Below, piece by piece: positions 6,911-64,000 of a stretch of DNA of 64,000 nt (positions within the stretch are counted from its first letter, which is position 1; every line of letters begins with the position of its first letter). The DNA lies in NCBI GenBank assembly GCA_036561565.1, contig DATBPB010000066.1, positions 14,211 to 78,210 of the forward strand. Reading direction: 5' to 3'. Under the pieces are notes generated by a model, which saw nothing but the letters and a program-made list of their open reading frames with translations, was not told the DNA's origin and made no database searches. The translations under genes and the position numbers were made by a program. This DNA is from Solirubrobacteraceae bacterium (GTDB lineage: Bacteria > Actinomycetota > Thermoleophilia > Solirubrobacterales > Solirubrobacteraceae).

Positions 6911-8038
6911 TCAGCGCGGTTCGGACAGGACACGTGCGTAGACCTCGTGGGTGGCGGCGGCGGCCCGCGACCACGTGAACGTCGCCGCGAAACGCGGTCC
7001 CAGATCTCGCGCGCGCCGGTCGTCCAACGCCGCCACGATCGCGTTGGCCGCGGCGGCGGGGTCGCGCGGGTTGAAGTGGTGGACGAGCTCGCCGCCGACC
7101 TCGCGCAGCACCGGCAGATCCGATGCCGCCACCGGCACCCCGTGCTCGAGCGCCTCGAGAACCGGGAAGCCGAACCCCTCGCCAAGGGTCGGCTGCGCGG
7201 CGGCGGCCGCCAGCCGCCACAGTCCCTCCAGATCCGCGTCCCCGACGTAGCCGACGAACCGAACGCGATCCTCGACGCGCAGTTCGGCGGCGAGCGCCCG
7301 CAGCTCCGCGTCGTAGGGCTCGGGGTGTCCGACGAACAGGATCACCACGTCGGACGGCAGCTGCGAGGCCGACCGCACGAGAACCTCCTGGTTCTTGTGC
7401 GGACGCTTGGCGCCGAGGCACAGCACGACCCGTCGGCCGTCGATCGCCAGCCGGCGGCGAAGCTCGGCCTCCGCCGTGGGGGCGCTCGCCGTGTGGCGCT
7501 CTAGTCCATGGTGAATGACCGTGAAGCGCTCCGTCGGGACCCCGAGCAGAGCGCAGATGTCGTCGCGCGCGGCCGCCGAGACCGCGATCAGAGCGTCGGC
7601 GCGACGGACCGCGGCGCGCAGCAGGAACGCCATGCCAAGCGTCGTGACGCGACCGAACGTGGGCTGGCGCATGAAGGTCACGTCGTGAACGGTGACGACG
7701 GCGCGCGTTCCGGGCACCAGCGGCGCGATGCTTGCCAGGCTGTGCACGATCTGCTCGCCTCGGCGCCGGGCGCGCAGCGGTAGCAGCGCTTGCTCGGCGA
7801 GCTGGCGGCGCACGCGCTGCCCGTCCTCGCACGGGAGCGAGACGAGCTCGGAGAAGTCGCCGAAGCCGTCTGCATGCAGGCTCGAGGCACCCGAGGCCGT
7901 GGTCACGATCGTCAGTCGAAGCGACGGAAAGGCATTCGCCAGGGCGGGAGCGAGGCCGCGCAGATAGGTCTCCGGCCCGCCGCTCACGCCCGGTGCAAGG
8001 AACAGGGCATTGAGCACCACCCGGCTTGGCGCTGGCAT
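6911..8038 (-). CDS. Glycosyltransferase family 4
   Basis: 375 aa. Motifs: PHKNQEVLV and GEGFGFPVLEALEHGVPVAASDLPVLREVGG. Confidence 0.85.
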   Translation of the reverse strand: MPAPSRVVLNALFLAPGVSGGPETYLRGLAPALANAFPSLRLTIVTTASGASSLHADGFGDFSELVSLPCEDGQRVRRQLAEQALLPLRARRRGEQIVHSLASIAPLVPGTRAVVTVHDVTFMRQPTFGRVTTLGMAFLLRAAVRRADALIAVSAAARDDICALLGVPTERFTVIHHGLERHTASAPTAEAELRRRLAIDGRRVVLCLGAKRPHKNQEVLVRSASQLPSDVVILFVGHPEPYDAELRALAAELRVEDRVRFVGYVGDADLEGLWRLAAAAAQPTLGEGFGFPVLEALEHGVPVAASDLPVLREVGGELVHHFNPRDPAAAANAIVAALDDRRARDLGPRFAATFTWSRAAAATHEVYARVLSEPR

Positions 8039-10658: not shown

Positions 10659-11647
10659 GCCAGCTGCTGAGCGTCGTCATCCCGGCCTACAACGAGGAGG
10701 ACAACGTCGTGCCGGTCTACGAGCGGCTCGCTCGTGTGCTCGACGCGGAGCGTGACCTCGACTGGGAGGTCATCTTCGCCGTCGATTCCGCGACCGACGC
10801 CACCGCAGACCTGATCCTTGAGCTCCGCCGGCGCGATCCCCGGGTCAAGATGCTGCGGCTGTCACGACGCTTTGGACAGCCGATGGCGACGCTCGCCGGG
10901 CTGTCGTTCGCCGGCGGTGACGCCACGGTCGTGATGGACTGCGACCTGCAGGACCCGCCGGAGCTGATCCCCCAACTCGTCGAACGCTGGCGCGAGGGCT
11001 ACGACGTCGTCTCCGCGCGAAGACGACGGCGCGCCGGCGAAACGATCCTCCGGCGTGTCATCGCGTGGGCCGGCTACCGCGTGATCGCGCGGATCTCCGA
11101 GGTCGAGATCCCGCCCGATACCGGTGATTTTCGACTCCTCAGCCGGCGCGTCGTTGACAACGTGCTCGCGCTGAAGGAGAGCCACGGGTTCCTGCGCGGA
11201 CTCGTGGGGCTGGTCGGCTTTCGCCAGACCAGCGTGGACTACGACCGCCCCCCGCGCGCGGCTGGCTCGACGAAGTACAGCCGGCTGTACGGATCGCTGC
11301 TGATCGGCCTGAACGGGGTCGTGGGGTTCTCGCGCTACCCCCTGCAGATGATCTCCCTGGGCGGCATCGCCTTCGCTCTGCTGGCGTTTGTGCTCGCGAT
11401 CGCCTACGCGATCCTCAAGCTCGCCGGCGTGGCCTTTCCGCTGGGCAACCCCACGATCGTGATCGTCGTCGCGTTCTTCAGCGGCATCCAAATGCTGTCG
11501 CTTGGCGTCATCGGCGAGTACGTCGGGCGGACCTACGACGAATCGCGCCAGCGTCCGAAGTTCATCATCGAGTCGACGCACGGGTTGGAGGCTCGCGAGC
11601 CGAGCCAGCACCAGCCCACGACCGAGGTCGGCGGAGCGCGGCCGTAA
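10655..11647 (+). CDS. GT2 polyprenyl-phosphate glycosyltransferase (ArnC/GtrB-like)
   Basis: ATG at 10655 overlaps the upstream stop (ATGA). Motifs: LSVVIPAYNEEDNV…AVDSATDAT…VMDCDLQDPPE…DTGDFRL. Two C-terminal TM helices (ISLGGIAFALLAFVLAIAY, IVIVVAFFSGIQMLSLGVIGEY). Confidence 0.85.
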   Translation: MSQLLSVVIPAYNEEDNVVPVYERLARVLDAERDLDWEVIFAVDSATDATADLILELRRRDPRVKMLRLSRRFGQPMATLAGLSFAGGDATVVMDCDLQDPPELIPQLVERWREGYDVVSARRRRRAGETILRRVIAWAGYRVIARISEVEIPPDTGDFRLLSRRVVDNVLALKESHGFLRGLVGLVGFRQTSVDYDRPPRAAGSTKYSRLYGSLLIGLNGVVGFSRYPLQMISLGGIAFALLAFVLAIAYAILKLAGVAFPLGNPTIVIVVAFFSGIQMLSLGVIGEYVGRTYDESRQRPKFIIESTHGLEAREPSQHQPTTEVGGARP

Positions 11648-11807
11648 ACCGAGCTCCGCGTCTCATCTCGCACCGGGTTCTCGAAGCTGTGACGACGCTG
11701 TCGCGCACGAACGCCCGGCCCACCCCCTCGACACCTCGGCGCCCTCGCCGGCCGCTAGGTCCCGGTCGCGCTCGAGAACCAACTTGCCTCCTCTAGGCTC
11801 TGCGCAC

Positions 11808-12602
11808 ATGGCGCTCAGTCCGCTCCGGCGTGCCTACCGCGGACTGCGTCTTCGCCTTCCCCAGCCTTGGTCGGTAGCGGTCGGCCGGATCGCGTATTTG
11901 CCGAAGCTCGCCGCCGGCGACGCCGCGACGCGCCGCGAGTTCACCGAGGAGCTGCTGATCGAGCGCCTCCTGGCGACCGGCGATGATCTCGAGCACGTGG
12001 GCGCCGGGCTCAGCGAGCGCGTCGTGGAGGTACCGTGGGCGATGCGCGCGCTCCCGGATGAGGCGACGGCGCGGATCCTCGACGCTGGCACGGCGTTCGC
12101 TCCGGTCGTCTACAAGCGGTTGCTGGTCCGCCTGCCGCAGGCCGTCGAGCTCGTCGACCTCGCCGACCCCGACCTGCCGATGTTGCGCAGTCATGTCGCG
12201 GACCTCCGTAGCCTCCCGTTTGAGTCCGGCAGCTTCGACGTCGCGATGTGTGTCTCAACGCTCGAGCATGTCGGTATGGACAACGAGCAGTACGGAGTCT
12301 CGGGCGGAGGCCGCGGCGACGTCGCCGCGCTCGCCGAGCTCGGCCGCGTGGCGCGGCGAGTGATCCTGACCGTCCCCGCCGGCGGGGACGCCGACCTGGG
12401 CTCGCACGTCCAATATGCGCCGTCCACTCTGCGCCGGCTCGTTTCAGAGGCCGGCCTGCGCGTGCTGCGCTTCGACGTGTTCGCCCACAACGCAAGGGAC
12501 GGCTGGACGCTCGCGCCCGAGGACGCGGTCGCAGCGTGCCATTACGGCGTGGGGTCGGTCGCCGCGGCGGCGGTCATCTGCGCGGAGCTCGCAGGCGACT
12601 GA
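11808..12602 (+). CDS. SAM-dependent methyltransferase-like protein
   Basis: In-frame ATG at 11808; the upstream part of the track ORF is Ser/Arg-rich and overlaps the preceding gene. Motifs: ILDAGTAFAP (degenerate motif I) and FDVAMCVSTLEHVG…RVILTVP. Confidence 0.6.
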   Translation: MALSPLRRAYRGLRLRLPQPWSVAVGRIAYLPKLAAGDAATRREFTEELLIERLLATGDDLEHVGAGLSERVVEVPWAMRALPDEATARILDAGTAFAPVVYKRLLVRLPQAVELVDLADPDLPMLRSHVADLRSLPFESGSFDVAMCVSTLEHVGMDNEQYGVSGGGRGDVAALAELGRVARRVILTVPAGGDADLGSHVQYAPSTLRRLVSEAGLRVLRFDVFAHNARDGWTLAPEDAVAACHYGVGSVAAAAVICAELAGD

Positions 12603-12605
12603 GCG

Positions 12606-13193
12606 GTGGGCTACTTCGACTGGCACGAGCAGCCGGGCTACTACCGCGACGTCACGCGTCATTTCGCGGCGGACGCCGCGCTGCTCGACGTCGGCTGTGG
12701 CACCGGATGGCTCGCCGACCACTTCCCCAACTACACCGGGATCGACGGCTCGGCCGACGCGGTCGCCGCCGCGAGCGCCCGCTCGCGCAACGTGGTTCAC
12801 GGCGACCTCGACTCGCCGCTGCCCTTTGCCGACTCCTCCTTCGACGCCGCGGTGCTCAAGGATGTCCTCGAGCACGTCTCGGACCCCGTCGCGCTGATCG
12901 AGGAGGTCCGGCGCGTGCTGCGGCCGGGCGCGACCGTGTTCGCCTCCTCACCCGACGCCCAGCGCTGGGTGTGGGACGACTACACGCACCGCCGCCCGTT
13001 CACGCGCAAGAGCATGCGGCTGCTGTTCGCCGATCGCGGCTTCGAGGTGCTCCGCGTCGGCTACGAGTCGGTCACGCCCGGTGTCGGCCTGATCGCGGGA
13101 CGGACCCGCCGCAAGCGCCGCCCGCGCGCTTTCGCGCTGCTCGCGCGTCTGCCGCTGCACCGACGCAACGTGTGGCTGCTCGCGCGCCGCTAA
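12606..13193 (+). CDS. Class I SAM-dependent methyltransferase
   Basis: 195 aa with a GTG start. Motifs: LLDVGCGTGWLA (motif I), GIDGS, and FDAAVLKDVLEHVSDP…LRPGATVFASSP. Confidence 0.8.
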   Translation: MGYFDWHEQPGYYRDVTRHFAADAALLDVGCGTGWLADHFPNYTGIDGSADAVAAASARSRNVVHGDLDSPLPFADSSFDAAVLKDVLEHVSDPVALIEEVRRVLRPGATVFASSPDAQRWVWDDYTHRRPFTRKSMRLLFADRGFEVLRVGYESVTPGVGLIAGRTRRKRRPRAFALLARLPLHRRNVWLLARR

Positions 13194-14284
13194 GCACGGC
13201 GCCCGAGCTGCTCGAGGACGTCGAGGACGTGGCGCGCGCTGGCGGTCCAGTCGAAGCGCGCCGCCTGCGCCGGCCCGGCCGCGGCGCTCCGTTCGCGCAG
13301 CTCGCGATCGCCGAGCAGCCCGCCGAGCGCGCGGGCGATGTCGCCGACGTCGTAGGGGTCCGCGTAGAGCGCCGCCGAGCCGCCGACCTCGGGCATGCTC
13401 GAAGCCGATGAGGTGAGCACCGCCGTTCCCGACGCAAGCGCCTCGAGGACGGGGAGACCGAACCCCTCATACAGCGAGAGGTAGCAGACCAGCTCGGCAT
13501 GCCGGTAGAGGCACGGCAGGTCGGCTTCGGCGACGAACCCGAGCATCCGAGCGAGCTCGCGGTGGGCGGCGACGGCGGCCGACGGATCCGAGTACCCCCA
13601 CCCGGCCGCTCCGGCGATCCCCAGCGTCCAGCCTTCGCGGATGCGCGGCTCGAGGCTCGCGAAGGCCTCGATAACGCGCGGGAGGTTCTTGCGCGGCTCG
13701 ACCGTCCCGGTGACCAGGACGTAGGGACGCCGCAGGCCATGGCGTTCGAGGATCGCTTCGTCATCTTCGCCGGGCTGTGGCGTGTAGGCCGCGGATGCGG
13801 CGGCGGTCGCCACGCTCGCGCGTCCCTCCGCCGACGGGAAGCGATCGATGAGCTCGCGCCGCGTGGTCTCCGAGATCGCGATCAGCGCCCCGCATCGTCG
13901 GAGCGCAAGCGGCAGCGTCACACGCTCGAGCAGCGCGCCCCGCGGCGGGCGCAGGCGCCGGTCGAAGGCGACGAAGTCGTAGACGATCGCAGCTCCCGGG
14001 ACTCGCCACGGCACCGTGACGGCGTAGCTCGTGCAGGCCAGCGCGACATCCGCGTGCCGCGACATCAGCCGTCCCGCAACCAGCGGCCAGCGCAAACCGG
14101 CGGCGCCGACGATCTCCCATGAGAAGCGCGAGTCGAGGTCTCCCTCGAGCCACGGGCGGCTCGTCACGAGGCGGTATTCGTGGTCGGCGTCCAGGCGGCC
14201 GAGGCCGAGCAGCAGCTCTCGGACGTAGCGACCGCGCCCGGCGGGAACCTCGGCGGCGGCACGGGCATCGATCGCGATCCTCAC
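13190..14284 (-). CDS. Glycosyltransferase family 4
   Basis: 364 aa. Motifs: MRIAIDARAA…GRGRYVRELL, PRKNLPRVI, and YEGFGLPVLEALASGTAVLTSSASSMPEVGG. Confidence 0.85.
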   Translation of the reverse strand: MRIAIDARAAAEVPAGRGRYVRELLLGLGRLDADHEYRLVTSRPWLEGDLDSRFSWEIVGAAGLRWPLVAGRLMSRHADVALACTSYAVTVPWRVPGAAIVYDFVAFDRRLRPPRGALLERVTLPLALRRCGALIAISETTRRELIDRFPSAEGRASVATAAASAAYTPQPGEDDEAILERHGLRRPYVLVTGTVEPRKNLPRVIEAFASLEPRIREGWTLGIAGAAGWGYSDPSAAVAAHRELARMLGFVAEADLPCLYRHAELVCYLSLYEGFGLPVLEALASGTAVLTSSASSMPEVGGSAALYADPYDVGDIARALGGLLGDRELRERSAAAGPAQAARFDWTASARHVLDVLEQLGRRA

Positions 14285-54451: not shown

Positions 54452-54865
54452 CTACGGCAAGATCGTGAAGACCTGGCAATGGCGCGGCGTCACGGCTCCG
54501 AAGTGCCGGCGGTCGAGTGTGACGACGACGTCGGTGTCAAGTCGCTCGGCGAGCGCGATGAGCGAAGCGTCGGTACCCCCCAGCGGAAAGTCGGAGTACT
54601 GCGCGACGAGTTCCGCCATGCGCGCGAAGTCCTCCGTCGTCGGCGCCTCGACGTCCATCTCACCCAGGCCGTCGATGAACCGCGCCTCAGCAGCGGCGCC
54701 GAGGCGACGACCGACGAAGTAGGTGGCTTCGGCGATCACCAGCGCCGGGATGACGAGGCGCAGGTCGCCGCGCTCAAGCGTCGCACGCGCCGCGACGTGG
54801 TCCTGGTCGTCGTCATCGGCGACTGCGTAGAGCGGCCCTGCGTCAACGATCGCCAGAGACGTCAT
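54452..54865 (-). CDS. vapC: PIN-domain ribonuclease toxin (VapC family)
   Basis: In-frame ATG at 54865. Motif: LAIVDAGPLYAV…VIAEATYF…GGTDASLIALAERL…VVTLDRRHF, the four conserved acidic positions of PIN domains. Confidence 0.8.
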   Translation of the reverse strand: MTSLAIVDAGPLYAVADDDDQDHVAARATLERGDLRLVIPALVIAEATYFVGRRLGAAAEARFIDGLGEMDVEAPTTEDFARMAELVAQYSDFPLGGTDASLIALAERLDTDVVVTLDRRHFGAVTPRHCQVFTILP

Positions 54866-55091
54866 GCCACTCCTGCTCGAGCAGCGGCTCCATGTTCCGC
54901 GCCGTCGTCCTGTGCCCGCTTCTGCCGAGGCTCGCGATCGGGAGCCTCCTCGGCGAGTCCTCGTGACCCACGCCGAGGTCTCTGGCAAGGGCGACTCTGG
55001 CGACTTCGGAGACGGACACGCGTCGACGCTTGGCCTCCCGCGTGAGCGCCAGCGCAATGTCCGCCGGGAGGGAGATTGTGGTGCGCTTCAT
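54843..55091 (-). CDS. vapB: Ribbon-helix-helix (CopG-like) antitoxin (VapB-type)
   Basis: 82 aa. Motif: MKRTTISLPADIALALTREAKRRRVSVSEVARVALARDL, an RHH motif. It sits directly upstream of the PIN gene and overlaps it. Confidence 0.7.
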   Translation of the reverse strand: MKRTTISLPADIALALTREAKRRRVSVSEVARVALARDLGVGHEDSPRRLPIASLGRSGHRTTARNMEPLLEQEWHDVSGDR

Positions 55092-56483: not shown

Positions 56484-56930
56484 ATGAGCGCCGTCCAGAC
56501 GCAGCGAACGCTTGTCAAATCAGTGCCGGAGCTGTGGGCCGAGCTGAGCGAGTCCGCTCTGCTCGGGCGCATGCTCGGAAAGCCCTTTGGCGAGATCACG
56601 ATCACGCGCCGCACCCCCGAGTCGAGCATCGAATGGGAGAGCGAGCGCGCAGCGGGAGCGGTCGAGCTCGAGCCGAGCGGCTTTGGAACGCGGGTGCGCC
56701 TGACGGCGCAGATCGCTCCGCCACCGGCGCTCGAGCCGGTCGCGGAGCCACCGCGGCCCGGTCTTCTTGCGCGCATCTGGGCCCAGATCCGCCCACCCCA
56801 GCCCGCGATCGATGATCCGATCGAGCGCACGCCGGCGCCGATCGACGCCGGCGCCGCAGAGGACGCGCTGACTGCCGTGCTTGACGAGATCGGCGCCGCG
56901 CGGCACCGGCCGTTCTCCAGGCACCAATAG
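56484..56930 (+). CDS. Hypothetical protein (small N-terminal alpha/beta domain plus Pro-rich tail)
   Basis: In-frame ATG at 56484. Motif: [23 protein letters not shown]…[17 protein letters not shown]…. No family could be assigned by eye. Confidence 0.4.
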
Positions 56931-56940
56931 GATCGCGCGC

Positions 56941-58506
56941 TTGACCGAGCACGCGCCGCACAGCTACGCGGAGCGGCTGGCGAGGCTCGAGGAGCTCCGC
57001 CACGAGGCCGCGCACGCCGAGGGGCCCGCGGTCGCCAAGCAGCACGCGAAGGGCAAGTACACGGCGCGCGAGCGGATCGAGAAGCTGCTCGATCCCGGCT
57101 CCTTCGAGGAGCTCGACGGCTTCGTGCGCCACCGCACGACCGACTTCGAGATGGCCGGCTCGCGCCCCCTCGCCGACGCCGTGATCACCGGGCACGGCAC
57201 GATCGACGGGCGAGCGGTCTGCGTGTTCAGCCAGGACTTCACGGTCTTCGGCGGATCGCTTGGCGAGGTGATGGGCGAGAAGATCTGCAAGATCATGGAT
57301 CTGGCGGCCCGTGTCGGCTGCCCGCTGATCGGGATCAACGACTCGGGCGGGGCGCGCATCCAGGAGGGCGTCGTCTCGCTCGGCGCCTATGGCGAGGTCT
57401 TCTACCGAAACGTCCGCTGCTCGGGGGTGATCCCGCAGATCTCGCTGGTGATGGGTCCCTGCGCGGGCGGCGCGGTCTACTCGCCGGCGATCACCGACTT
57501 CGTGCTGATGGTCAAGGAGACCTCGCACATGTTCATCACGGGTCCCGACGTGATCCGCACGGTCACGCACGAGGAGGTCGGCTTCGAGGAGCTCGGCGGC
57601 GCGGTCACGCACAACACCAAGTCGGGCGTCGCCCACTTCGCTACGGCCGACGAGGACGACTGCCTGGCGGAGGCGCGCTACCTGCTGTCGTTCCTACCGC
57701 AGAACAACCTCGAGTCGACGCCGCGCGTGGCGAGCGCCGATGACCCGCTGCGCATGGATGCCGAGCTCGACTCCGTCGTCCCCGACAGCCCGTCAAAGGC
57801 CTACGACATGCGAGCGGCGATCGCGATGATCGTCGACGACACAGAGTTCCTGGAGGTGCACGAGCACCATGCCACCAACGTCGTCTGCGGCTTCGCGCGC
57901 CTCGACGGCATCGCCGTCGGCGTGGTGGGCAACCAGCCGCAGTCGCTCGCCGGCGTGCTGGACATCGACGCCTCGGCCAAGGCGGCGCGGTTCGTGCGAA
58001 CCTGCGACGCCTTCAACGTCCCGATCGTCACCTTTGTCGACGTGCCGGGCTTCCTGCCGGGCACCGCGCAGGAGTGGGGCGGGATCATCCGCCACGGCGC
58101 GAAGCTGCTCTACGCCTACGCCGAAGCGACCGTGCCGAAGTTGACGGTGATCACGCGCAAGGCCTACGGCGGCGCCTACGACGTCATGGCCTCAAAGCAC
58201 CTGCGCGCCGACTTCAACTTCGCCTGGCCCACAGCCGAGATCGCCGTGATGGGACCCGAGGGCGCCGTCAACATCATCTACAAGCGCCAGCTCGCCTCGA
58301 GCAAGTCGCCGGCCAAGCGCCGCGAGCAGCTGATGGACGACTACCGCGCGCGGTTCGCCAACCCCTACTCGGCCGCCGAACGCGGCTACATCGACGACGT
58401 CATCGAGCCCCACCAGACGCGGCCGCGGCTGATCACGGCGTTACAGCTGCTCGAGACCAAACGCGAGCACGGTCCGCAGCGCAAGCACGGCAACATCCCC
58501 CTCTAG
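56941..58506 (+). CDS. pccB: Acyl-CoA (propionyl-CoA) carboxylase carboxyltransferase beta subunit
   Basis: In-frame TTG at 56941. Motif: …[23 protein letters not shown]…[15 protein letters not shown]…[12 protein letters not shown]…[13 protein letters not shown]…GVVGNQP…AGVLDI…[28 protein letters not shown]…. Confidence 0.9.
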
Positions 58507-58512
58507 GAGCGC

Positions 58513-59550
58513 TCAGCCGGCATGCGCGCGGCGTGCGAGTGCCCGCACGCGGCTCGTCAGGTCGAGCTCCCCCAGGTTCCACGTCGGATGCCGCGAGCGC
58601 AACAGCGTCGAGACGCGCTCGCGCTCGCCGACCGACCACCAGCCCTGCGAGTGCTCGCCGAACAGCGCGCGCTTGAGCGCGGTCCCGCTGCCGGGATCCG
58701 GCCAGTTCGCCTCGATCTGGCCGGCCGCGGCCTCGACGTCCTCGAACGCCACGGCCGTCCAGAGCTCCGCCAGCCGCCGCAGCCGAAGCGGCTCGGGTGT
58801 TTCCGCGGGACCGAACTCCTCGAGAAACGACCGCAGCGCGCCCGGGGCCGGAGACCGTGCGGTGCACGCCAGCTCCTCGAGCCACGCCGGGGCCGGCTTC
58901 GGCAGGCGCTCGAGCACGCCCGTGCCGCCGCTCAGCCGCGGCGCGGCCGACAGCAGGAACTCCGATTGATCGGCCGCGGCGAGCTCGCGCGTGCGAAACG
59001 AGAAACGGGCGCGCAGCGCCGGCCACATCGCCGACCACAGCGCGACCATCGCGCGTGCGGCCTCCGCCAGATCGGCGTGGAGCACGACGCCGGCGCCGGT
59101 CGTGCGACAGGCGACCTGGATGCAGCGCTCGAACAGCTCGACGCTCGGGGTGCGCTCGGACAGGAACGTCGCCGGCGGGTCCGCGCCGTCGGCGGTGAGC
59201 GTCAGCGCGGTGGTGAAGCCCTCGAGCGACCCTCCCGCCGGATTGCGCGGCAGGCGCACGAGCGCCTCGACCGCATGCGGAGCCGCCAGCGCCGCCGCAT
59301 CGATCAGCAGGACGTGGCTGCACACCGCGCCCGCGCGCTCGGCGCGCGCGTCACTCCAGGTGACGCAGAAGGCGAACTGACGGGTGTCGGGCAGCGCGAG
59401 CCCGGTGACCAGCGGCGGACAGCCGGGGCTCATCACGGCGTCGGTGGCAACGAGCAGCCGCACCATCAGCGCACGCGGAACCTCGCGCGATGCGGCGAGG
59501 AGCCGGTGGCCGTCGTCGTAGCCGAAGACGAACTGGTCGGCCCGGCTCAC
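58513..59550 (-). CDS. Unknown 345-aa partner protein of the paired-GTPase operon (gene 4)
   Basis: GTG at 59550 overlaps the upstream stop (GTGA). It has balanced, non-shadow composition, an N-terminal block QFVFGYDDGHRLLAAS, and no catalytic motif or TM segment that I recognise. Confidence 0.65.
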   Translation of the reverse strand: MSRADQFVFGYDDGHRLLAASREVPRALMVRLLVATDAVMSPGCPPLVTGLALPDTRQFAFCVTWSDARAERAGAVCSHVLLIDAAALAAPHAVEALVRLPRNPAGGSLEGFTTALTLTADGADPPATFLSERTPSVELFERCIQVACRTTGAGVVLHADLAEAARAMVALWSAMWPALRARFSFRTRELAAADQSEFLLSAAPRLSGGTGVLERLPKPAPAWLEELACTARSPAPGALRSFLEEFGPAETPEPLRLRRLAELWTAVAFEDVEAAAGQIEANWPDPGSGTALKRALFGEHSQGWWSVGERERVSTLLRSRHPTWNLGELDLTSRVRALARRAHAG

Positions 59551-60392
59551 GAGCCCCAGATCGCCCAGCGCAGCGGCTCTGTCAACGAGACGCGCTTCCC
59601 GTCGCGCTCGATGGCGTACACGCGGTCAAAGATCTCGCCCTTGGCGAGCAGCTCGTCGCGATCGACCAGCGCGCCGCCCTGCGCCGACACGCCGAACACG
59701 CCGAGCTCGGCGATGTGCGGGTTGCACTCGATCGTCGCGAGCAGGCCGGGAATCCGCGTCTCGAGCCACTGGTAGGGAGTGGGATCCCCGTCGACTGTGT
59801 CCCACGCCGAGACGACGACCGCCATGCGAATCGGCCACAGCGCCCGGCCCACGTCGGCGACGTTCTCGAACACCGAGATCAGCTCGGCGGCGCTGCTCGC
59901 GTGCTCGCGGGGGTCGAACGGGATCGTTGCCGCTGCGTTCGCGCCGTCCCCGTTCGCAGCCTGCGTGGCCCCCCCAAGCACGGCAACCGGCTGAGGCACG
60001 CGGATGCGCTCCGGGTGCACGAACAGCAGGATCCCCGTCGCCTCCTCGCAGATCCCACGCAGCGGCGCGTACCAGACACGTTGTTCGAAGAGCAGGCGCA
60101 GCGACTCGCCGGAGGTGTCCGGGACGAGCAGGTCAGCCGTGCCGTTGGCCTCGAAATCGAGCGTTACGGCGAGCTGGCCGCTCGTCTCGAGCGTCGTTCG
60201 CTCGACCTCCTGAGCCCGCGCGACCTGGTCGGCGAGTCGCTGGACGTAGGCGCGATCGCCGCTGAAGCTGGCCTCGGTGACGGACCGATCGAGCGGGGAC
60301 TGCACGAGCGCCCAGAGCGTCCCGAGGTAGGTCGACTTTCCGCTGCGCGGCATCCCAAGCAGCGCGACGCGAGGCCGCGGGCGTTCGCTCAC
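59547..60392 (-). CDS. P-loop GTPase-like protein B (gene 3)
   Basis: GTG at 60392 overlaps the upstream stop (GTGA). G1 VALLGMPRSGKST. G3 LLVPDTSGE. G4-like VVVSAWD. G5-like GVSAQGG. Confidence 0.7.
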   Translation of the reverse strand: MSERPRPRVALLGMPRSGKSTYLGTLWALVQSPLDRSVTEASFSGDRAYVQRLADQVARAQEVERTTLETSGQLAVTLDFEANGTADLLVPDTSGESLRLLFEQRVWYAPLRGICEEATGILLFVHPERIRVPQPVAVLGGATQAANGDGANAAATIPFDPREHASSAAELISVFENVADVGRALWPIRMAVVVSAWDTVDGDPTPYQWLETRIPGLLATIECNPHIAELGVFGVSAQGGALVDRDELLAKGEIFDRVYAIERDGKRVSLTEPLRWAIWGS

Positions 60393-61291
60393 AGCTCATA
60401 CCCCACGTTCGTGCGGCCGGGCTCGAGCTCCGCGGCAGGGGCCGGAATCGTCTCGTGCCGCTCGCCGCTGCACAGCCAGCGCACAAGCTCACCGAGGCCG
60501 GCGGGCTCCGCGGCGAGCCCCGGTAGCGCGGTCCGCACGCTCGTCGTCTCGGGGTCGACGCCGCGCACGGTCGAGAGAAGATGGGGCTCGTGCCGGCGAA
60601 CCGCCCGTTCGCCTGCCGCTGTCAGCGCGTCGGCCTTGGTCAGGGCGATCGCCACGCGCGCGCTCGCGCGGACGGCACCCGAGCCACGCAGCGCGAGAAT
60701 CTGACGCAGCGCCCGCGTCGCGGCGATCTCGGACTCGCCCGGTGTCGAGAGCGCCTCGCCGTCGAGGACGACGACGAAGCGGTCGGCGTGAGCGGCCAAC
60801 GGCAGTTCCTGAAGCAACGGCCGGCCCTCGCGGACGCGCTCGAAGACGCCACCGCCGAGATCGGCGAAGACGAGCTCGACGAGCTCGCCGCTCGGCGGCC
60901 TGACGCGCATGTGGAGGAGAAAAGCATCCTCGTCGGCGGTTGGCGGGAAGCGCTCGCGGAGATGACCGGACTCGATCCGCCCGCCGTGGGCGCGGCGTTC
61001 GAAGCCGAGCGCCGTGCGAGTGCCGGCGAGGCGGTGCTCGGCCAGGCCGTTCGCGGTCTGCATCCGCTGCCACAGCGAGACGAGCAACGCCGTCTTGCCG
61101 GTGCCCGGCTCGCCCATCAGCAGCACCAGCCGCGAGCCTCGACCGCGCCGCAGCCCGCGCGCCTCGGCGAGCGTCATCGCCTCGCCCGAGATCGCCGTGT
61201 CCGATTCCTCCGAACTGGGCTCGAGCCGCGCGTCGGCCTGCTCGAGGGCCTCGATCCAGGAGCGCTCGCGCTGGCCGTCCGGCTCGCTCAT
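60389..61291 (-). CDS. P-loop GTPase-like protein A (gene 2)
   Basis: ATG at 61291 overlaps the upstream stop (ATGA). G1 LLMGEPGTGKTAL. G3 VFADLGGG. G4 IALTKAD. Confidence 0.7.
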   Translation of the reverse strand: MSEPDGQRERSWIEALEQADARLEPSSEESDTAISGEAMTLAEARGLRRGRGSRLVLLMGEPGTGKTALLVSLWQRMQTANGLAEHRLAGTRTALGFERRAHGGRIESGHLRERFPPTADEDAFLLHMRVRPPSGELVELVFADLGGGVFERVREGRPLLQELPLAAHADRFVVVLDGEALSTPGESEIAATRALRQILALRGSGAVRASARVAIALTKADALTAAGERAVRRHEPHLLSTVRGVDPETTSVRTALPGLAAEPAGLGELVRWLCSGERHETIPAPAAELEPGRTNVGYEL

Positions 61292-61887
61292 CGCGCGATC
61301 GCCTCAGCCAGCGGGATCAGCTTTCCGGAGCTGCGCGCGCGCTCGAGGATCGCGTGCTCGCGCGCGATGCCGTGCGTCTCCTCAAGTCCCTTGAGCAGGT
61401 CGAGAGACCGGGCGGCGCGGTAGCGGACGTCGGGCGCGACGCGCATCACATCGATGATCACGGCGTGCTCGGCGGCGCTGATCGGCTCAGACGGCTCCTC
61501 GCCGGCCGCGCCTTCGTCCGCCGGCTCCTCGACCCGCGCGGCGAGCCCCGCCCAGCCGGCGGTGGAGAGCGGCTCATACGCCGGCTCGCCACGCTCCGCC
61601 TCGACGGTCGCGAGCACCGCCGGAGCGGATTCGACCACCGCCGGCTCTGGAGCAACGACCGGCGGGATGGCCTCGGTCGGCTCCAGATCGGCGTCCTCCA
61701 CGGGCTGCGCGGCAGGCGGCTCAGGCGCCGCCTCGGTGTGAACCACGGGCGGCTCCCGGGGCTCCTCGCGCTCCTCGCGAGCCGGCGTCAGCGGCTCATC
61801 GAAGAGCGGGGCGTAGGGACCCGGCATCGGCCCGTCGTCGGGGCCGGCCCGCGGGCGCGATTTGCCGCGGAACAGACGCCCGAACAT
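61288..61887 (-). CDS. Pro/Glu/Ala-rich low-complexity protein with ~65-aa helical C-terminal domain (gene 1 of the GTPase operon)
   Basis: 199 aa. Residues ~20-130 are PE/PA-rich (…EPREPPVVHTEAAPEPPAAQPVEDADLEPTEAIPPVVAPEPAVVE…). The C-terminus is AEHAVIIDVMRVAPDVRYRAARSLDLLKGLEETHGIAREHAILERAR…. Confidence 0.55.
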   Translation of the reverse strand: MFGRLFRGKSRPRAGPDDGPMPGPYAPLFDEPLTPAREEREEPREPPVVHTEAAPEPPAAQPVEDADLEPTEAIPPVVAPEPAVVESAPAVLATVEAERGEPAYEPLSTAGWAGLAARVEEPADEGAAGEEPSEPISAAEHAVIIDVMRVAPDVRYRAARSLDLLKGLEETHGIAREHAILERARSSGKLIPLAEAIAR

Positions 61888-62036
61888 CAGCTCGCCTGCC
61901 GCGAGAGAGGAGCGGGCTGATACCCGTTGGCCGATGAGATCTGCATCGCGTCAGTACTACCCATCGCCGCTGCGGGCGAACGCTAGCACCAGCCCGCGAG
62001 CACGCGTGGCTCGTCGTGGGGCGCCAGAATGGCGAC

Positions 62037-62243
62037 ATGGAGGTGCAGCGCGGGATCGAAGCGGCCGGGTCGCCCACCGAGCTCGAGGCCGTGGCGATCG
62101 TCGCGGCGATCCAGCGGTTCCTCAGCGACACCGCGCCGCCGGCGCCCCGGGCCTCGGGGCGCGACAGCGGATGGCTGCGGGCTGCACGGCTTGAGGCGGT
62201 TGGCCTCGATGCCACGGCAAACCCCCATTTCTTAAAACTCTAG
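62037..62243 (+). CDS. Small protein resembling the acyl-CoA carboxylase epsilon subunit (tentative)
   Basis: 68 aa from the ATG at 62037, with GC-rich third codon positions. MEVQRGIEAAGSPTELEAVAIVAAIQRF…PPAPRASGRDSGWLRAARLE resembles AccE/PccE-type peptides from memory. It is on the same strand as pccB. Confidence 0.4.
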   Translation: MEVQRGIEAAGSPTELEAVAIVAAIQRFLSDTAPPAPRASGRDSGWLRAARLEAVGLDATANPHFLKL

Positions 62244-62260
62244 AAAGGCGCCTGCCTTTC
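62243..62260 (+). terminator. Short hairpin at the stop codon of the epsilon-like ORF (terminator or operator candidate)
   Basis: GAAAGGC (62243-62249) and GCCTTTC (62254-62260) form a 7-bp stem with a 4-nt loop, inside an unusually AT-rich 55-nt patch. Confidence 0.3.
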
Positions 62261-62262
62261 AG

Positions 62263-62268
62263 TAGTAT
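62263..62268 (+). promoter_or_regulatory. Putative -10 element (TAGTAT) for a leaderless sulfite-reductase transcript
   Basis: TAGTAT is followed by 6 nt and then the ATG at 62275, the same geometry as upstream of vapB. It lies in an AT-rich patch (62221-62275). Confidence 0.3.
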
Positions 62269-62274
62269 CTAGGG

Positions 62275-64000
62275 ATGGCCTCCACCCCGCGCGGCTCGCT
62301 GGCCGATCCCGAGGTGTATGAGAACGTCCCCGGGCACGTCATCCCGATCCTCGAGCGCGAGTTCGACGACTTCGACACGCAGGCCGGGAAGTTCCTCGCC
62401 GGCGAGACGCCCGAGGACGAGTTCATCGGCTTCCGCCTCAAGCAGGGCGTCTACGGGCAGCGCCAGATCGAGCGCCAGATGGTCCGCGTCAAGCTCCCCT
62501 TCGGCGGGATCAACCCCGAACAGATGGAGGCCTTCGCGGAGGCCGTCGAGCGCTGGGTTCCGCTGCGCAAGGGTCACATCACGACCCGTCAGAACGTGCA
62601 GATGCACCACGTGCCGCTGCCCGACGCAGCCAAGCTGATCCGCGACATCTCCCGCAGCGGCCTGTCCTCGCGCGAAGGCTGCGGCAACACGATGCGGAAC
62701 GTGACCGGCGATCCGTGGGCGGGAATCAGCGACGGCGAGCTTTTCGACCCGACTCCCTACGTCGGCGCCTACGTCCGCTACTTCGTGCGCAACGAGGTAT
62801 GCCAGCTGATGCCGCGCAAGTTCAAGACGGCGTTCGCGGCGACAGACGAGGACGTCGCGATCACGGGCATTCACGACGGCGGGTTCCTGCCGCGAGTCAG
62901 GGACGGCCGCCGCGGATTCGAGCTTCGCGTCGGCGGCGGCACCTCGATCATGCCGCGCGTCGCGCCGACTCTCTATGAGTTCGTCGGCGCCGACGACGGC
63001 GAGTACCTGAAGGTGATGGAGGCGGTACTGCGGATCTTCAACCGCCAGGACGAGCTGCGAGCCAACCGCGCCCGAGCCCGCATCAAGGTGCTGATCGACA
63101 AGATCGGCATCGACGCCTTCCGCGAGATGGTCGAGGAGGAGCTGCGCGGAGACTGGGTCGGCGAGCGCGACTTCGATCCCGCGCCGCTGCTGTTCGCCTA
63201 CGACGAGGAGGCGGGCGCGCCGGAGCTTCGCGACCACTACCGCCAGCCCGAGGGCTCCGAGCCCGAGTTCACGCGCTTCGTCGAGCTCAACACGCAGCCT
63301 CAGCGCCAGGAGGGCTTCGTCAGCGTCGAGGTCCGCGTGATCCGCGGCGACCTGACCCCCGAGCAGTTCCGCGGGATCGCCGCGATCATGCGCGATCACT
63401 CCGGCGGCTACGCGCGCACGACCGTTCAGCAGAACCTCGTGCTGCGCTGGGTGCGTCCGCAGGCGCTCTATGAGGTGTGGCTCGCGCTGCGCGAGCTGGG
63501 TCTCGCCGACGCCGGCCCGCGCACGACCGAGGACGTCGTCAGCTGCCCTGGAACCGACTCCTGCAAGCTCGGCATCACGAGCTCGATGGGGCTCAACGCG
63601 GCGGTCCAGGAGCGCATCGAGTCGATGCGGCTCACCGATCCGCTGAGCAGCCGGATCCACATCAAGATGAGCGGCTGCCCGAACGGCTGCGGGCAGCATC
63701 ACATCGCCAACATCGGCTTCACGGGCGCCTCGATCAAGATCGGCGAGCGCACCGTCCCCGCCTACATCCCGATGATCGGCGGGAGCTTCGCCGACGGCGG
63801 CGTCGCGATCGGCCAGCGGCTGAAGTCGCGCCTGCCGGCGAAGCGCGTGCCCGACGCCGTCGAGCGCTGGATCCGCGCCTACGAGGACGAGCGCGTCGAG
63901 GGCGAGACGTTCAACGAGTACGTCGAGCGGATCGGGACGGGACGCTTCGAGGAGCTCGTCAAGGACCTCGCGCTGCCGCCCGAGTTCTCGCTGGAGACGA
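62275..64000 (+). CDS. sir: Ferredoxin-dependent sulfite (nitrite/sulfite) reductase hemoprotein, NirA/Sir type (partial; runs off the window end)
   Basis: Absent from the ORF track because there is no stop in the window. My translation from ATG 62275: MASTPRGSLADPEVYENVPGHV…FRLKQGVYGQRQ…TTRQNVQMHH…REGCGNTMRNVTG…VVSCPGTDSCKLGITSS…IKMSGCPNGCGQHH (siroheme/4Fe-4S Cys cluster). The 477-aa track ORF on the minus strand is its antisense shadow. Confidence 0.85.
   Translation, partial: MASTPRGSLADPEVYENVPGHVIPILEREFDDFDTQAGKFLAGETPEDEFIGFRLKQGVYGQRQIERQMVRVKLPFGGINPEQMEAFAEAVERWVPLRKGHITTRQNVQMHHVPLPDAAKLIRDISRSGLSSREGCGNTMRNVTGDPWAGISDGELFDPTPYVGAYVRYFVRNEVCQLMPRKFKTAFAATDEDVAITGIHDGGFLPRVRDGRRGFELRVGGGTSIMPRVAPTLYEFVGADDGEYLKVMEAVLRIFNRQDELRANRARARIKVLIDKIGIDAFREMVEEELRGDWVGERDFDPAPLLFAYDEEAGAPELRDHYRQPEGSEPEFTRFVELNTQPQRQEGFVSVEVRVIRGDLTPEQFRGIAAIMRDHSGGYARTTVQQNLVLRWVRPQALYEVWLALRELGLADAGPRTTEDVVSCPGTDSCKLGITSSMGLNAAVQERIESMRLTDPLSSRIHIKMSGCPNGCGQHHIANIGFTGASIKIGERTVPAYIPMIGGSFADGGVAIGQRLKSRLPAKRVPDAVERWIRAYEDERVEGETFNEYVERIGTGRFEELVKDLALPPEFSLET

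Follow-up and report, generated by a model that had tools for sequence, protein, structure and literature searches.

A reduced GAP1-N1-type double-GTPase cassette without a recognizable effector in a Solirubrobacteraceae genome

Results

Organization and family assignment of the cassette

We analyzed a 64,000-nt stretch of the genome of a Solirubrobacteraceae bacterium (assembly GCA_036561565.1, contig DATBPB010000066.1, positions 14,211 to 78,210; 71.5% G+C; hereafter the window), in which an earlier note, made from the sequence alone, had singled out four minus-strand genes as an uncharacterized conflict/defense or signaling system built around two nucleoside triphosphatases (NTPases). These genes form a reduced variant of an already described family, the GAP1-N1-type DO-GTPase (double-GTPase) systems, and fail several of its defining features; the cassette is probably an effector-less switch core.

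Read in the direction of transcription, gene 1 (61887 to 61288, 199 aa), gene 2 (61291 to 60389, 300 aa), gene 3 (60392 to 59547, 281 aa) and gene 4 (59550 to 58513, 345 aa) start with ATG, ATG, GTG and GTG, respectively, and are joined by the 4-nt overlaps ATGA, GTGA and GTGA, all read in the sequence. The open reading frames (ORFs) and overlaps lie exactly where the earlier note had placed them, and every motif it quoted can be read there (gene 2: GEPGTGKT, FADLGGG, LTKAD; gene 3: GMPRSGKST, VPDTSGE, VVSAWD, SAQ; gene 4: FGYDDGHRLLAAS). The 128 nt upstream of gene 1 (61888 to 62015), shared divergently with a PccX-like small ORF, belong to the inserted segment described below and presumably hold its promoter. 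Within the cassette region, no sigma-70-type consensus, intrinsic terminator or Rfam family stood out above chance.

Systems of this type were predicted by Kaur, Burroughs, Iyer & Aravind (eLife 2020) from comparative genomics alone (PMC7159879). As described there, the GAP1-N1 subtype combines GAP1, a GASH protein and two DO-GTPases, one of which carries a zinc ribbon. Its effector is variable (phosphoesterase, PNPase, TIR, SLATT, peptidase and others, with a calcineurin-type phosphoesterase the commonest) and is linked to GAP1 either by direct fusion or by way of EAD1 or GAAD, the latter a small helical adaptor (PMC7159879). The authors inferred that the GTPase pair is a dimer that binds its cognate GAP1 and that GAAD couples effectors to GAP1; they described GAP1 as three domains, N, M and C, and gave the Walker-B glutamate as a hallmark of the DO-GTPase family (PMC7159879). 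Their 2020 survey reported the N1 type in 262 organisms and the N2 type in 904, with GAP1-N1 systems found mostly in proteobacteria, bacteroidetes and spirochaetes (PMC7159879). No other paper in the searchable literature names DO-GTPase, GAP1-N1, GASH or GAAD. The description as uncharacterized therefore holds in that no function is defined in that literature, and it does not hold in the sense of unrecognized, as DO-GTPase1 (PF19975), DO-GTPase2 (PF19993) and GAP1-N1 (PF20012) are all in Pfam.

Pfam assigns genes 2, 3 and 4 to these three families, and gene 1 appears to carry a divergent form of the GAAD domain (PF19976), as set out below. Of the names that had been put forward for the cassette, DO-GTPase2, DO-GTPase1 and N1-type GAP1 are thus borne out and GASH is not: none of the four proteins matches PF19994, and a purpose-built GASH profile is unmatched anywhere in the 64-kb window, which also contains no second DO-GTPase copy. 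The assignment goes beyond chance resemblance because the Pfam matches are strong, the gene order recurs in many contigs and the ratio of nonsynonymous to synonymous substitution rates (dN/dS) is well below 1.

No effector domain was found in the four proteins in Pfam, NCBIfam or PADLOC, in agreement with the earlier reading. The Pfam scan revealed no nuclease, protease, TIR, SLATT or pore-forming domain; NCBIfam gave P-loop noise only, and PADLOC (PADLOC-DB v2) gave only P-loop-level matches (E ≥ 0.0018). Transmembrane-like segments are likewise absent from the four proteins, as had been noted, with the highest 19-residue hydropathy (1.74) falling inside the confidently folded core of the gene 4 product. 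Sequence searches detected no solved structure for DO-GTPase1, DO-GTPase2 or GAP1.

The two DO-GTPases

Gene 2 matches DO-GTPase2 (1.7e-28, 100 bits) and gene 3 matches DO-GTPase1 (2.5e-44, 152 bits, profile positions 2-271 of 271), so that the profile check proposed for the two NTPases places both far above the 27-bit cut-off of their families. The two proteins are similar only in the P-loop region (BLASTP E 0.003), in keeping with the view that they are not recent duplicates.

Gene 3 retains every DO-GTPase1 motif in a 42-member alignment, namely GMPRSGKST and PDTSGE (family patterns GxPxxGK[ST] and PDxSGE, with the Walker-B glutamate kept), SAWD and GVSAQG. Its SAWD had been described as a degenerate G4 motif; this does not stand, as SA[WFY]D occurs in 41/41 aligned DO-GTPase1 sequences and is a family signature. 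The real departure from the family lies in the Walker B of gene 2. The P-loop (GEPGTGKT) and G4 (TKAD) of this protein are intact, and its Walker B reads D-L-G-G-G (ADLGGG) against the family D-x-x-G-E in a 40-member alignment, with the glutamate replaced by glycine. The same position is Gly, Ala or Ser in 5/5 sequences from systems without GASH, and the glutamate is kept in most of the family. The glutamate of DxxGE occupies the position of the catalytic glutamine of Ras-like GTPases (Gln61 in Ras); because of this correspondence, we infer that the gene 2 product may bind GTP and hydrolyze it poorly, or only with help.

Neither GTPase carries a zinc ribbon. Gene 3 starts directly at its P-loop, and gene 2 has no cysteine in its first 60 residues and one in the whole protein. 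Cys-rich DO-GTPase2 N-termini are found in four of the related loci (L029, L047, L027 and L034; labels of this form denote 57 related loci that we annotated with purpose-built profiles, with representatives checked against Pfam).

A short GAP1 with a possible longin-like domain

Gene 4, which overlaps the end of the DO-GTPase1 gene by 4 nt, matches GAP1-N1 (6.5e-17, 62 bits). The GAP1-M model scores below its 24-bit cut-off (0.0066, 17 bits) and GAP1-C gives no match; both models also fail on canonical GAP1 proteins of 642-658 aa. In BLASTP, residues 5-335 align to residues 12-333 of the 642-aa GAP1 of L019. Judged by this alignment, gene 4 appears to comprise the N-terminal half only of the canonical 620-724-aa protein, the C-terminal half being missing.

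The residues G10, Y11, G14, S21, D37, W65, R72, G74 and P104 do not vary across 37 GAP1 proteins from many phyla, and H15 and H79 are almost invariant. We hypothesize that Arg72, present in 37/37, is a candidate catalytic or contact residue. Three substitutions, A67D, W77C and Y148C, are confined to an inner subclade made up of the window's copy, L001, L004, L012 and L013, with A, W and Y in 31/31 other sequences. The replacement of two conserved aromatics, both by cysteine, hints at a compensating pair or a lost interface.

An AlphaFold2 model built from a 25-sequence alignment (predicted local distance difference test (pLDDT) 82, predicted template modeling (TM) score 0.82) divides gene 4 into three structural regions: residues 1-105, a beta-beta-alpha-beta-beta-beta-alpha-alpha arrangement resembling a longin/PAS-like N1-type domain; an alpha/beta middle region at about 137-202; and an all-alpha C-terminal region at 222-344. 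Foldseek matches of the N-domain are mostly longin domains of GTPase regulators (probability 0.96-1.00, E ≥ 0.02, query TM-score (TMq) 0.52-0.56). They include FNIP2 in the FLCN-FNIP2-Rag-Ragulator complex (probability 1.00, TMq 0.52), the Lst4 longin domain (0.99) and an Asgard Roadblock-Longin protein (0.98, TMq 0.56), with further longin matches to FLCN, GATOR1 Nprl2/3, C9orf72-SMCR8 and DENND10. Longin and roadblock domains are GTPase-binding platforms (PMC3521125). The matches weakly suggest a longin-like fold for GAP1-N1, for which the 2020 paper names no longin, DENN or roadblock fold (PMC7159879), and this prediction provides a concrete, testable hypothesis on the role of GAP1.

Gene 1 is a probable GAAD protein without a recognizable effector

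Gene 1 consists of a short hydrophobic-basic N-terminal peptide (MFGRLFRGKSR), a disordered stretch of variable length (residues 12-133) and a helical C-terminal domain of about 65 aa (residues ~134-199). The Pro/Glu/Ala-rich character reported before is confirmed, with these three residues making up 57% of the disordered stretch. The whole protein has no match in Pfam, NCBIfam or PADLOC, and only 8 homologues were found in 5.8 billion proteins, with conservation mainly in the last ~65 residues.

The C-terminal domain (VMRVAPDVRYRAARSLDLL … ILERARSSGKLIPLAEAIAR; 61288 to 61485, minus strand) is supported by profile alignments, hhalign and a family alignment. The Pfam GAAD model does not match gene 1 directly at E ≤ 1. 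A profile of the gene 1 C-terminus does match the C-terminal end of Metallophos ORFs in L019, L023, L024 and L026, and this is also where Pfam GAAD falls in L042 (4e-16) and in L019 (2.9e-4, which does not reach the curated cut-off). Compared by hhalign with an independent set of canonical GAAD domains, namely those missed by its own profile, the gene 1 C-terminus aligns over 59 of 69 columns (probability 93.8%, E 1.7e-7). An exhaustive hmmsearch of 1.84 billion representatives returned only 24 relatives, some of them short and standalone, the others 409-435 aa long and carrying the domain C-terminally; the three long ones that were scanned are all Metallophos proteins, and the closest Metallophos-fused relative is followed by a GASH gene.

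On these alignments, we accept the gene 1 C-terminus as a divergent member of GAAD. The Metallophos-GAAD relatives and the hhalign match therefore point to gene 1 as a descendant of an effector gene, in which the adaptor would have been kept and the enzyme replaced by the Pro/Glu/Ala stretch. Small proteins of this type can accordingly be labeled in annotation as GAAD-only remnants of effector genes. Two other identities were considered. A truncated GASH is ruled out: BLASTP finds no similarity, and in L010 and L014 a gene-1-like ORF stands immediately upstream of a full GASH. The N-terminal peptide is shared by standalone GAAD proteins (MFGRLFRGKSR, MLFRRRKKQ, MFFRRRAKQ), and a role for it as a MinD-like amphipathic membrane anchor is not supported, the hydrophobic moment not being significant against shuffled sequences in 4/5 homologues.

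Canonical relatives and a GASH-containing sister clade

The canonical gene order is Metallophos+GAAD (~420 aa), GASH (~355 aa), DO-GTPase2, DO-GTPase1 and GAP1 (620-724 aa). It occurs in Xenorhabdus, Pseudomonas, Methylobacterium, Binatia, a Deltaproteobacteria metagenome-assembled genome (MAG) and several Solirubrobacterales, with Xenorhabdus L042 as a clear example (Metallophos+GAAD, 4e-16; GASH, 2e-28; two DO-GTPases; a 658-aa GAP1) and the same order in L019, L023, L027, L029, L034, L037, L045 and L047.

The nearest named relatives of the window are Solirubrobacteraceae MAGs. Among the annotated loci, the form without GASH is found only in the window, L001-L008, L012 and L013. In a concatenated DO-GTPase2+DO-GTPase1+GAP1 tree, these copies form one clade, sister to a clade that contains GASH, as the canonical systems also do; the four-gene form persists in six or more diverged lineages. 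The MAG SMAG_U9782 carries both forms, L013 without GASH and L014 with it, and the two are therefore paralogues able to coexist.

The sister-clade systems, all from Solirubrobacterales (L009-L011, L014-L018 and L020), comprise a class I S-adenosylmethionine (SAM) methyltransferase, an optional small GAAD protein, GASH, DO-GTPase2, DO-GTPase1 and a short GAP1. They are the closest systems by the concatenated phylogeny and resemble the window's in their short GAP1 (307-345 aa), in having no Metallophos and no zinc ribbon and, in some cases, in the loss of the DO-GTPase2 Walker-B glutamate. Unlike the window form, they keep GASH, occupy a different chromosomal place and have a small GAAD gene in some members only; the window form, for its part, has neither GASH nor the methyltransferase, and a long disordered insert marks its GAAD protein.

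The methyltransferase (251 aa, Methyltransf_25/11) is always directly upstream on the same strand in the sister-clade systems (L009:5382-6137, L010:5100-5855 and L011:5387-6142), and equivalent genes are present in L014-L018, L020 and L022. The outer flanks differ among L009-L011, the three loci for which wider context was examined. The enzyme might belong to those systems as a linked component, or stand in for the effector. One module-bearing lineage (L005, 6108-7940; also L006-L008) has a 610-aa ORF immediately upstream of, and on the same strand as, the GAAD gene; it combines a long acidic EAVEEI-type repeat region with a C-terminal DUF5655 (3.2e-6) and is absent from the window. The module or its flanking genes are fragmented in L004, L022, L036, L044 and L052, with split DO-GTPase or GAP1 matches and, in L004, a split sulfite reductase; these may be assembly or frameshift artefacts or, in some lineages, genuine decay.

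The cassette is an accessory insertion under purifying selection

In every member of its clade, the cassette is flanked by a sulfite-reductase/PAPS-reductase cluster on one side and a carboxyltransferase (pccB-like) gene on the other. Relatives with an empty site (L053-L056) have, on one strand, the carboxyltransferase, 7 nt, a 65-aa PccX-like ORF and the sulfite reductase, and junction alignments to them set the extent of the insertion at 58507 to 62015, from the carboxyltransferase stop (58506) to the start of the PccX-like ORF (62016). The carboxyltransferase of the empty-site relatives is 84-87% identical to that of the window, against 87-88% for the module-bearing L005, and trees of the genes on both flanks place the empty L053 beside the filled L005 and put the empty L054 and L056 further out. 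The empty sites in equally close relatives and the flank trees therefore mark the cassette as an accessory insertion rather than a housekeeping set: by these comparisons it appears as a reverse-orientation insertion of about 3.5 kb, gained and lost among close relatives. Strict vertical conservation at the locus, which the earlier note had set against its own reading, applies only as synteny within one clade, the same site being empty in those equally close relatives.

No terminal direct or inverted repeats were found at the cassette ends beyond GC-rich chance matches, and a transposon-like insertion is not supported. A housekeeping link to the flanking carboxylase and sulfite-reductase genes, for which no indication had been seen before, is also rejected, given the opposite orientation, the empty sites and paralogous copies elsewhere.

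Against the two closest relatives, L012 and L001, dN/dS is 0.13-0.15 for DO-GTPase1, 0.16-0.22 for DO-GTPase2, 0.24 for GAP1 and 0.35-0.37 for gene 1, values that indicate purifying selection on all four genes. Protein identity to relatives is 69-82% for DO-GTPase1, 61-80% for DO-GTPase2 and 50-66% for GAP1, compared to 83-94% for the flanks. Measured against L012 and L001, the synonymous divergence (dS) is 0.65-1.1 in the cassette and 0.34-0.41 in the adjacent housekeeping genes (56881-58506 and 62266-63999), a roughly twofold difference that may stem from weaker constraint on codon usage or from a separate history of the cassette, for instance exchange among relatives.

Neighboring features

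The cassette is not in a defense island; its flanks are housekeeping genes, and the only nearby accessory element is a VapBC-type pair (54452-55091, minus strand), in which a ribbon-helix-helix antitoxin (82 aa, PF01402, 1.6e-5) overlaps a PIN-domain toxin ORF (PF01850, 9.3e-15). The pair lies between a sugar-transferase and an epimerase gene. Since no gene is called between the same two genes in L005 and L053-L056, it is probably a second small accessory insertion, about 3.4 kb from the cassette. In L001, FkbM-type Methyltransf_21 genes (6972-7790, 11429-12271 and 12578-13417) are inserted on both sides of the cassette; the site therefore accepts further insertions.

On the other side of the cassette, a 75-aa ORF (62016-62243, plus strand) corresponds to the small ORF that follows the carboxyltransferase in empty-site relatives; in the window, the cassette stands between the two genes. 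The window copy has no Pfam match, and its L001 counterpart has a weak match to PccX. Between this ORF and the start of the sulfite reductase, an AT-rich stretch, TTCTTAAAACTCTAGAAAGGCGCCTGCCTTTCAGTAGTATCTAG (62228-62270, plus strand), stands out against the 71% GC of the genome. Four lineages with proteins only ~83% identical share its core, CTTTCAGTAGTAT, without change, and the stretch holds a hairpin (AAAGGC-GCCT-GCCTTT) with no Rfam match. A regulatory role in the sulfate-assimilation operon is possible.

Discussion

A probable switch core retained without a recognizable effector

The explanation that we consider probable is that the cassette is a reduced, effector-less GAP1-N1-type double-GTPase switch core. 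The ancestral operon would have encoded a calcineurin-type phosphoesterase fused to GAAD, followed by GASH, DO-GTPase2, DO-GTPase1 and a GAP1 of about 650 aa, an arrangement still seen in relatives. In the Solirubrobacteraceae lineage, the phosphoesterase domain would have been lost and a Pro/Glu/Ala disordered stretch would have taken its place, giving the GAAD-only gene 1; the GASH gene and the DO-GTPase2 Walker-B glutamate would also have been lost, and GAP1 reduced to its N-terminal half. What remains, a predicted switch core, is kept by purifying selection as an accessory cassette of about 3.5 kb.

As to how such a core might work, DO-GTPase1 and DO-GTPase2 would form a heterodimer in which DO-GTPase1 is the hydrolyzing subunit and DO-GTPase2 binds GTP, hydrolyzing it poorly or only with help. 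GAP1 would dock on the pair through its longin-like N-terminal domain as a regulator or scaffold, possibly supplying the invariant Arg72, and would also relay the nucleotide state to the GAAD protein. With its disordered arm and its basic N-terminal peptide, the GAAD protein would provide the only remaining output and might act on or recruit a partner encoded elsewhere.

Several points weigh against this explanation. Every mechanistic step of the DO-GTPase switch is an inference, and the catalytic consequence of the lost Walker-B glutamate is assumed from the position of Ras Gln61. The glutamate is also lost in part of the GASH-containing sister clade; its loss is therefore not tied to reduction of the system. 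The longin-like reading of GAP1 is itself weak: the model of the N-domain by itself has a pLDDT of 72, Foldseek of the GAP1 model against the PDB gives no match at E ≤ 0.001, and PAS and Cache domains are interleaved among the longin matches at TM-scores of about 0.5. The interleaving of PAS domains is expected because the longin fold is PAS-like (PMC3521125). An effector could, moreover, hide in the disordered arm of gene 1 or in the helical C-terminus of GAP1. Finally, the cassette is dispensable in close relatives, which fits accessory defense as well as a redirected role.

The complete version of the mechanism, in which the effector-less core is a functional machine with one catalytic and one nucleotide-binding-only GTPase, a longin/DENN-like GAP1 acting through its invariant arginine and the GAAD disordered arm as output, is improbable when all of its parts are taken together. 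If it is true, DO-GTPase and GAP1 would be prokaryotic counterparts, possibly relatives, of the longin-regulated Rag-FLCN/GATOR1 switches, and the window's lineage would show such a switch surviving without any toxin.

The cassette is a natural minimal version of the system, made up of four small, soluble proteins that are still under selection and include neither a toxin domain nor GASH. With such a version, one could study GTP binding, heterodimerization, GAAD binding and the influence of GAP1 free of toxicity. That the GTPase-GAP1-GAAD core has persisted in the absence of an effector suggests that it is worth keeping alone and questions the simple picture of a switch that releases a fused toxin.

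Alternative explanations

Behind the switch core with its output left open, we rank a defense system with an unrecognized effector, then a domesticated regulator and last a dead relic. The first two of these alternatives are specific versions of what the output of the core might be, which, judged by sequence, may either still be directed against phages or have been turned to cellular use.

That the cassette is a complete defense system, acting autonomously against phages or plasmids, is possible but rather unlikely. Candidates for its effector would be the GAAD protein's disordered arm with the basic N-terminal peptide, the helical C-terminus of GAP1, or the GTPases themselves, by consuming GTP or by assembling. 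By definition, the core families are components of conflict systems with variable effectors (PMC7159879), and the locus offers much that would suit such a system: presence/absence polymorphism of an accessory insertion among close relatives, protein identity of 50-82% in the cassette against 83-94% in the flanks, a VapBC toxin-antitoxin pair inserted about 3.4 kb away and purifying selection on all four genes. However, the related systems that were examined show Metallophos as their sole effector type, and the cassette has neither this nor GASH; no PADLOC defense model matches; the four proteins lack transmembrane segments and any nuclease, protease, TIR, SLATT or pore-forming domain; the N-terminal peptide of gene 1 is not significantly amphipathic; and the flanks are those of a housekeeping region, not a defense island, with no mobile-element scars. 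The conflict/defense label given before is thus apt for the family, which was predicted as such (PMC7159879), and does not extend to this copy: calling the cassette an active defense system goes beyond the evidence because it is without every recognized effector and several defining parts.

Less likely again is a domesticated regulatory switch, an effector-less core retained for a non-defense cellular role in the manner of MglA-MglB or of the Rag heterodimer with FLCN-FNIP or GATOR1. Clear purifying selection across lineages at a dS of 0.65-1.1, despite the loss of the effector and GASH, would suit such a role, as would the stable position within the clade, the persistence of an effector-less sister clade with both types coexisting in one MAG, the longin-like fold signal in GAP1-N1 and the conserved N-terminal peptide gained by standalone GAAD proteins. 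On the other hand, relatives that are equally close keep the same locus without the cassette, which would make the cellular role dispensable; the cassette evolves faster than its housekeeping flanks and has no functional link to them, given its opposite orientation and the location of its paralogous copies elsewhere; and the fold evidence is weak.

That the cassette is a non-functional, decaying remnant of a conflict system heading to pseudogenization is very unlikely: the lost effector domain, GASH, C-terminal half of GAP1, zinc ribbon and DO-GTPase2 Walker-B glutamate, the A67D, W77C and Y148C substitutions of the window's subclade at GAP1 residues fixed in 31/31 other sequences, and the fragmented copies or genes in five related loci would all fit decay, but four intact ORFs with their 4-nt coupling overlaps preserved, dN/dS of 0.13-0.37 against L012 and L001 (not near 1, at a dS of 0.65-1.1), retained DO-GTPase1 catalytic motifs and invariant GAP1 residues, and the same four-gene form in at least six diverged lineages argue against it. 

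Comparison with known systems

The systems with which the cassette can be compared differ in how closely they resemble it. The full-length GAP1 model finds its best Foldseek match in TagF, an accessory repressor of type VI secretion (PDB 9t0n; E 6.9e-3, probability 0.72, 366 aligned columns). This match has a TM-score of only 0.26 and a root-mean-square deviation of 13.5 Å, the sequences are not similar, and type VI secretion genes are absent from those parts of the window that were examined, so we treat it as a lead only. A description of TagF as a DENN-like protein was sought and dropped: we found no source for it, and the TagF paper is silent on the fold.

The GAP1-N1 systems of Kaur et al. 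are the family to which the cassette belongs. It shares with them the order DO-GTPase2, DO-GTPase1, then a GAP1 with an N1-type N-terminal domain, a first gene with a probable, divergent GAAD adaptor domain, and the character of a tightly coupled, cytoplasmic accessory insertion. It departs from them in having no GASH gene, no zinc ribbon on either GTPase and no effector, with a disordered stretch where relatives have Metallophos; in a GAP1 of 345 aa rather than 620-724 aa; in a DO-GTPase2 without the hallmark Walker-B glutamate; and in an actinobacterial (Solirubrobacteraceae) host in which its position is syntenically stable within the clade.

A more distant comparison is with the longin regulators of Rag GTPases (FLCN-FNIP or Lst7-Lst4, and GATOR1 Nprl2-Nprl3) and with MglB-MglA. 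There is no sequence similarity and no evidence of homology between these regulators and GAP1, the Foldseek E-values are 0.02 or worse, and we do not claim membership; the DO-GTPases form a TRAFAC family of their own, with SAWD/TKxD and DxxGE motifs. The resemblance is instead one of working parts, as both arrangements pair two paralogous GTPases with a dedicated non-GTPase partner, and the predicted N (longin-like), M (alpha/beta) and C (all-alpha) regions of GAP1 parallel the longin, DENN and d-DENN succession of the longin/DENN regulators (PMC3521125).

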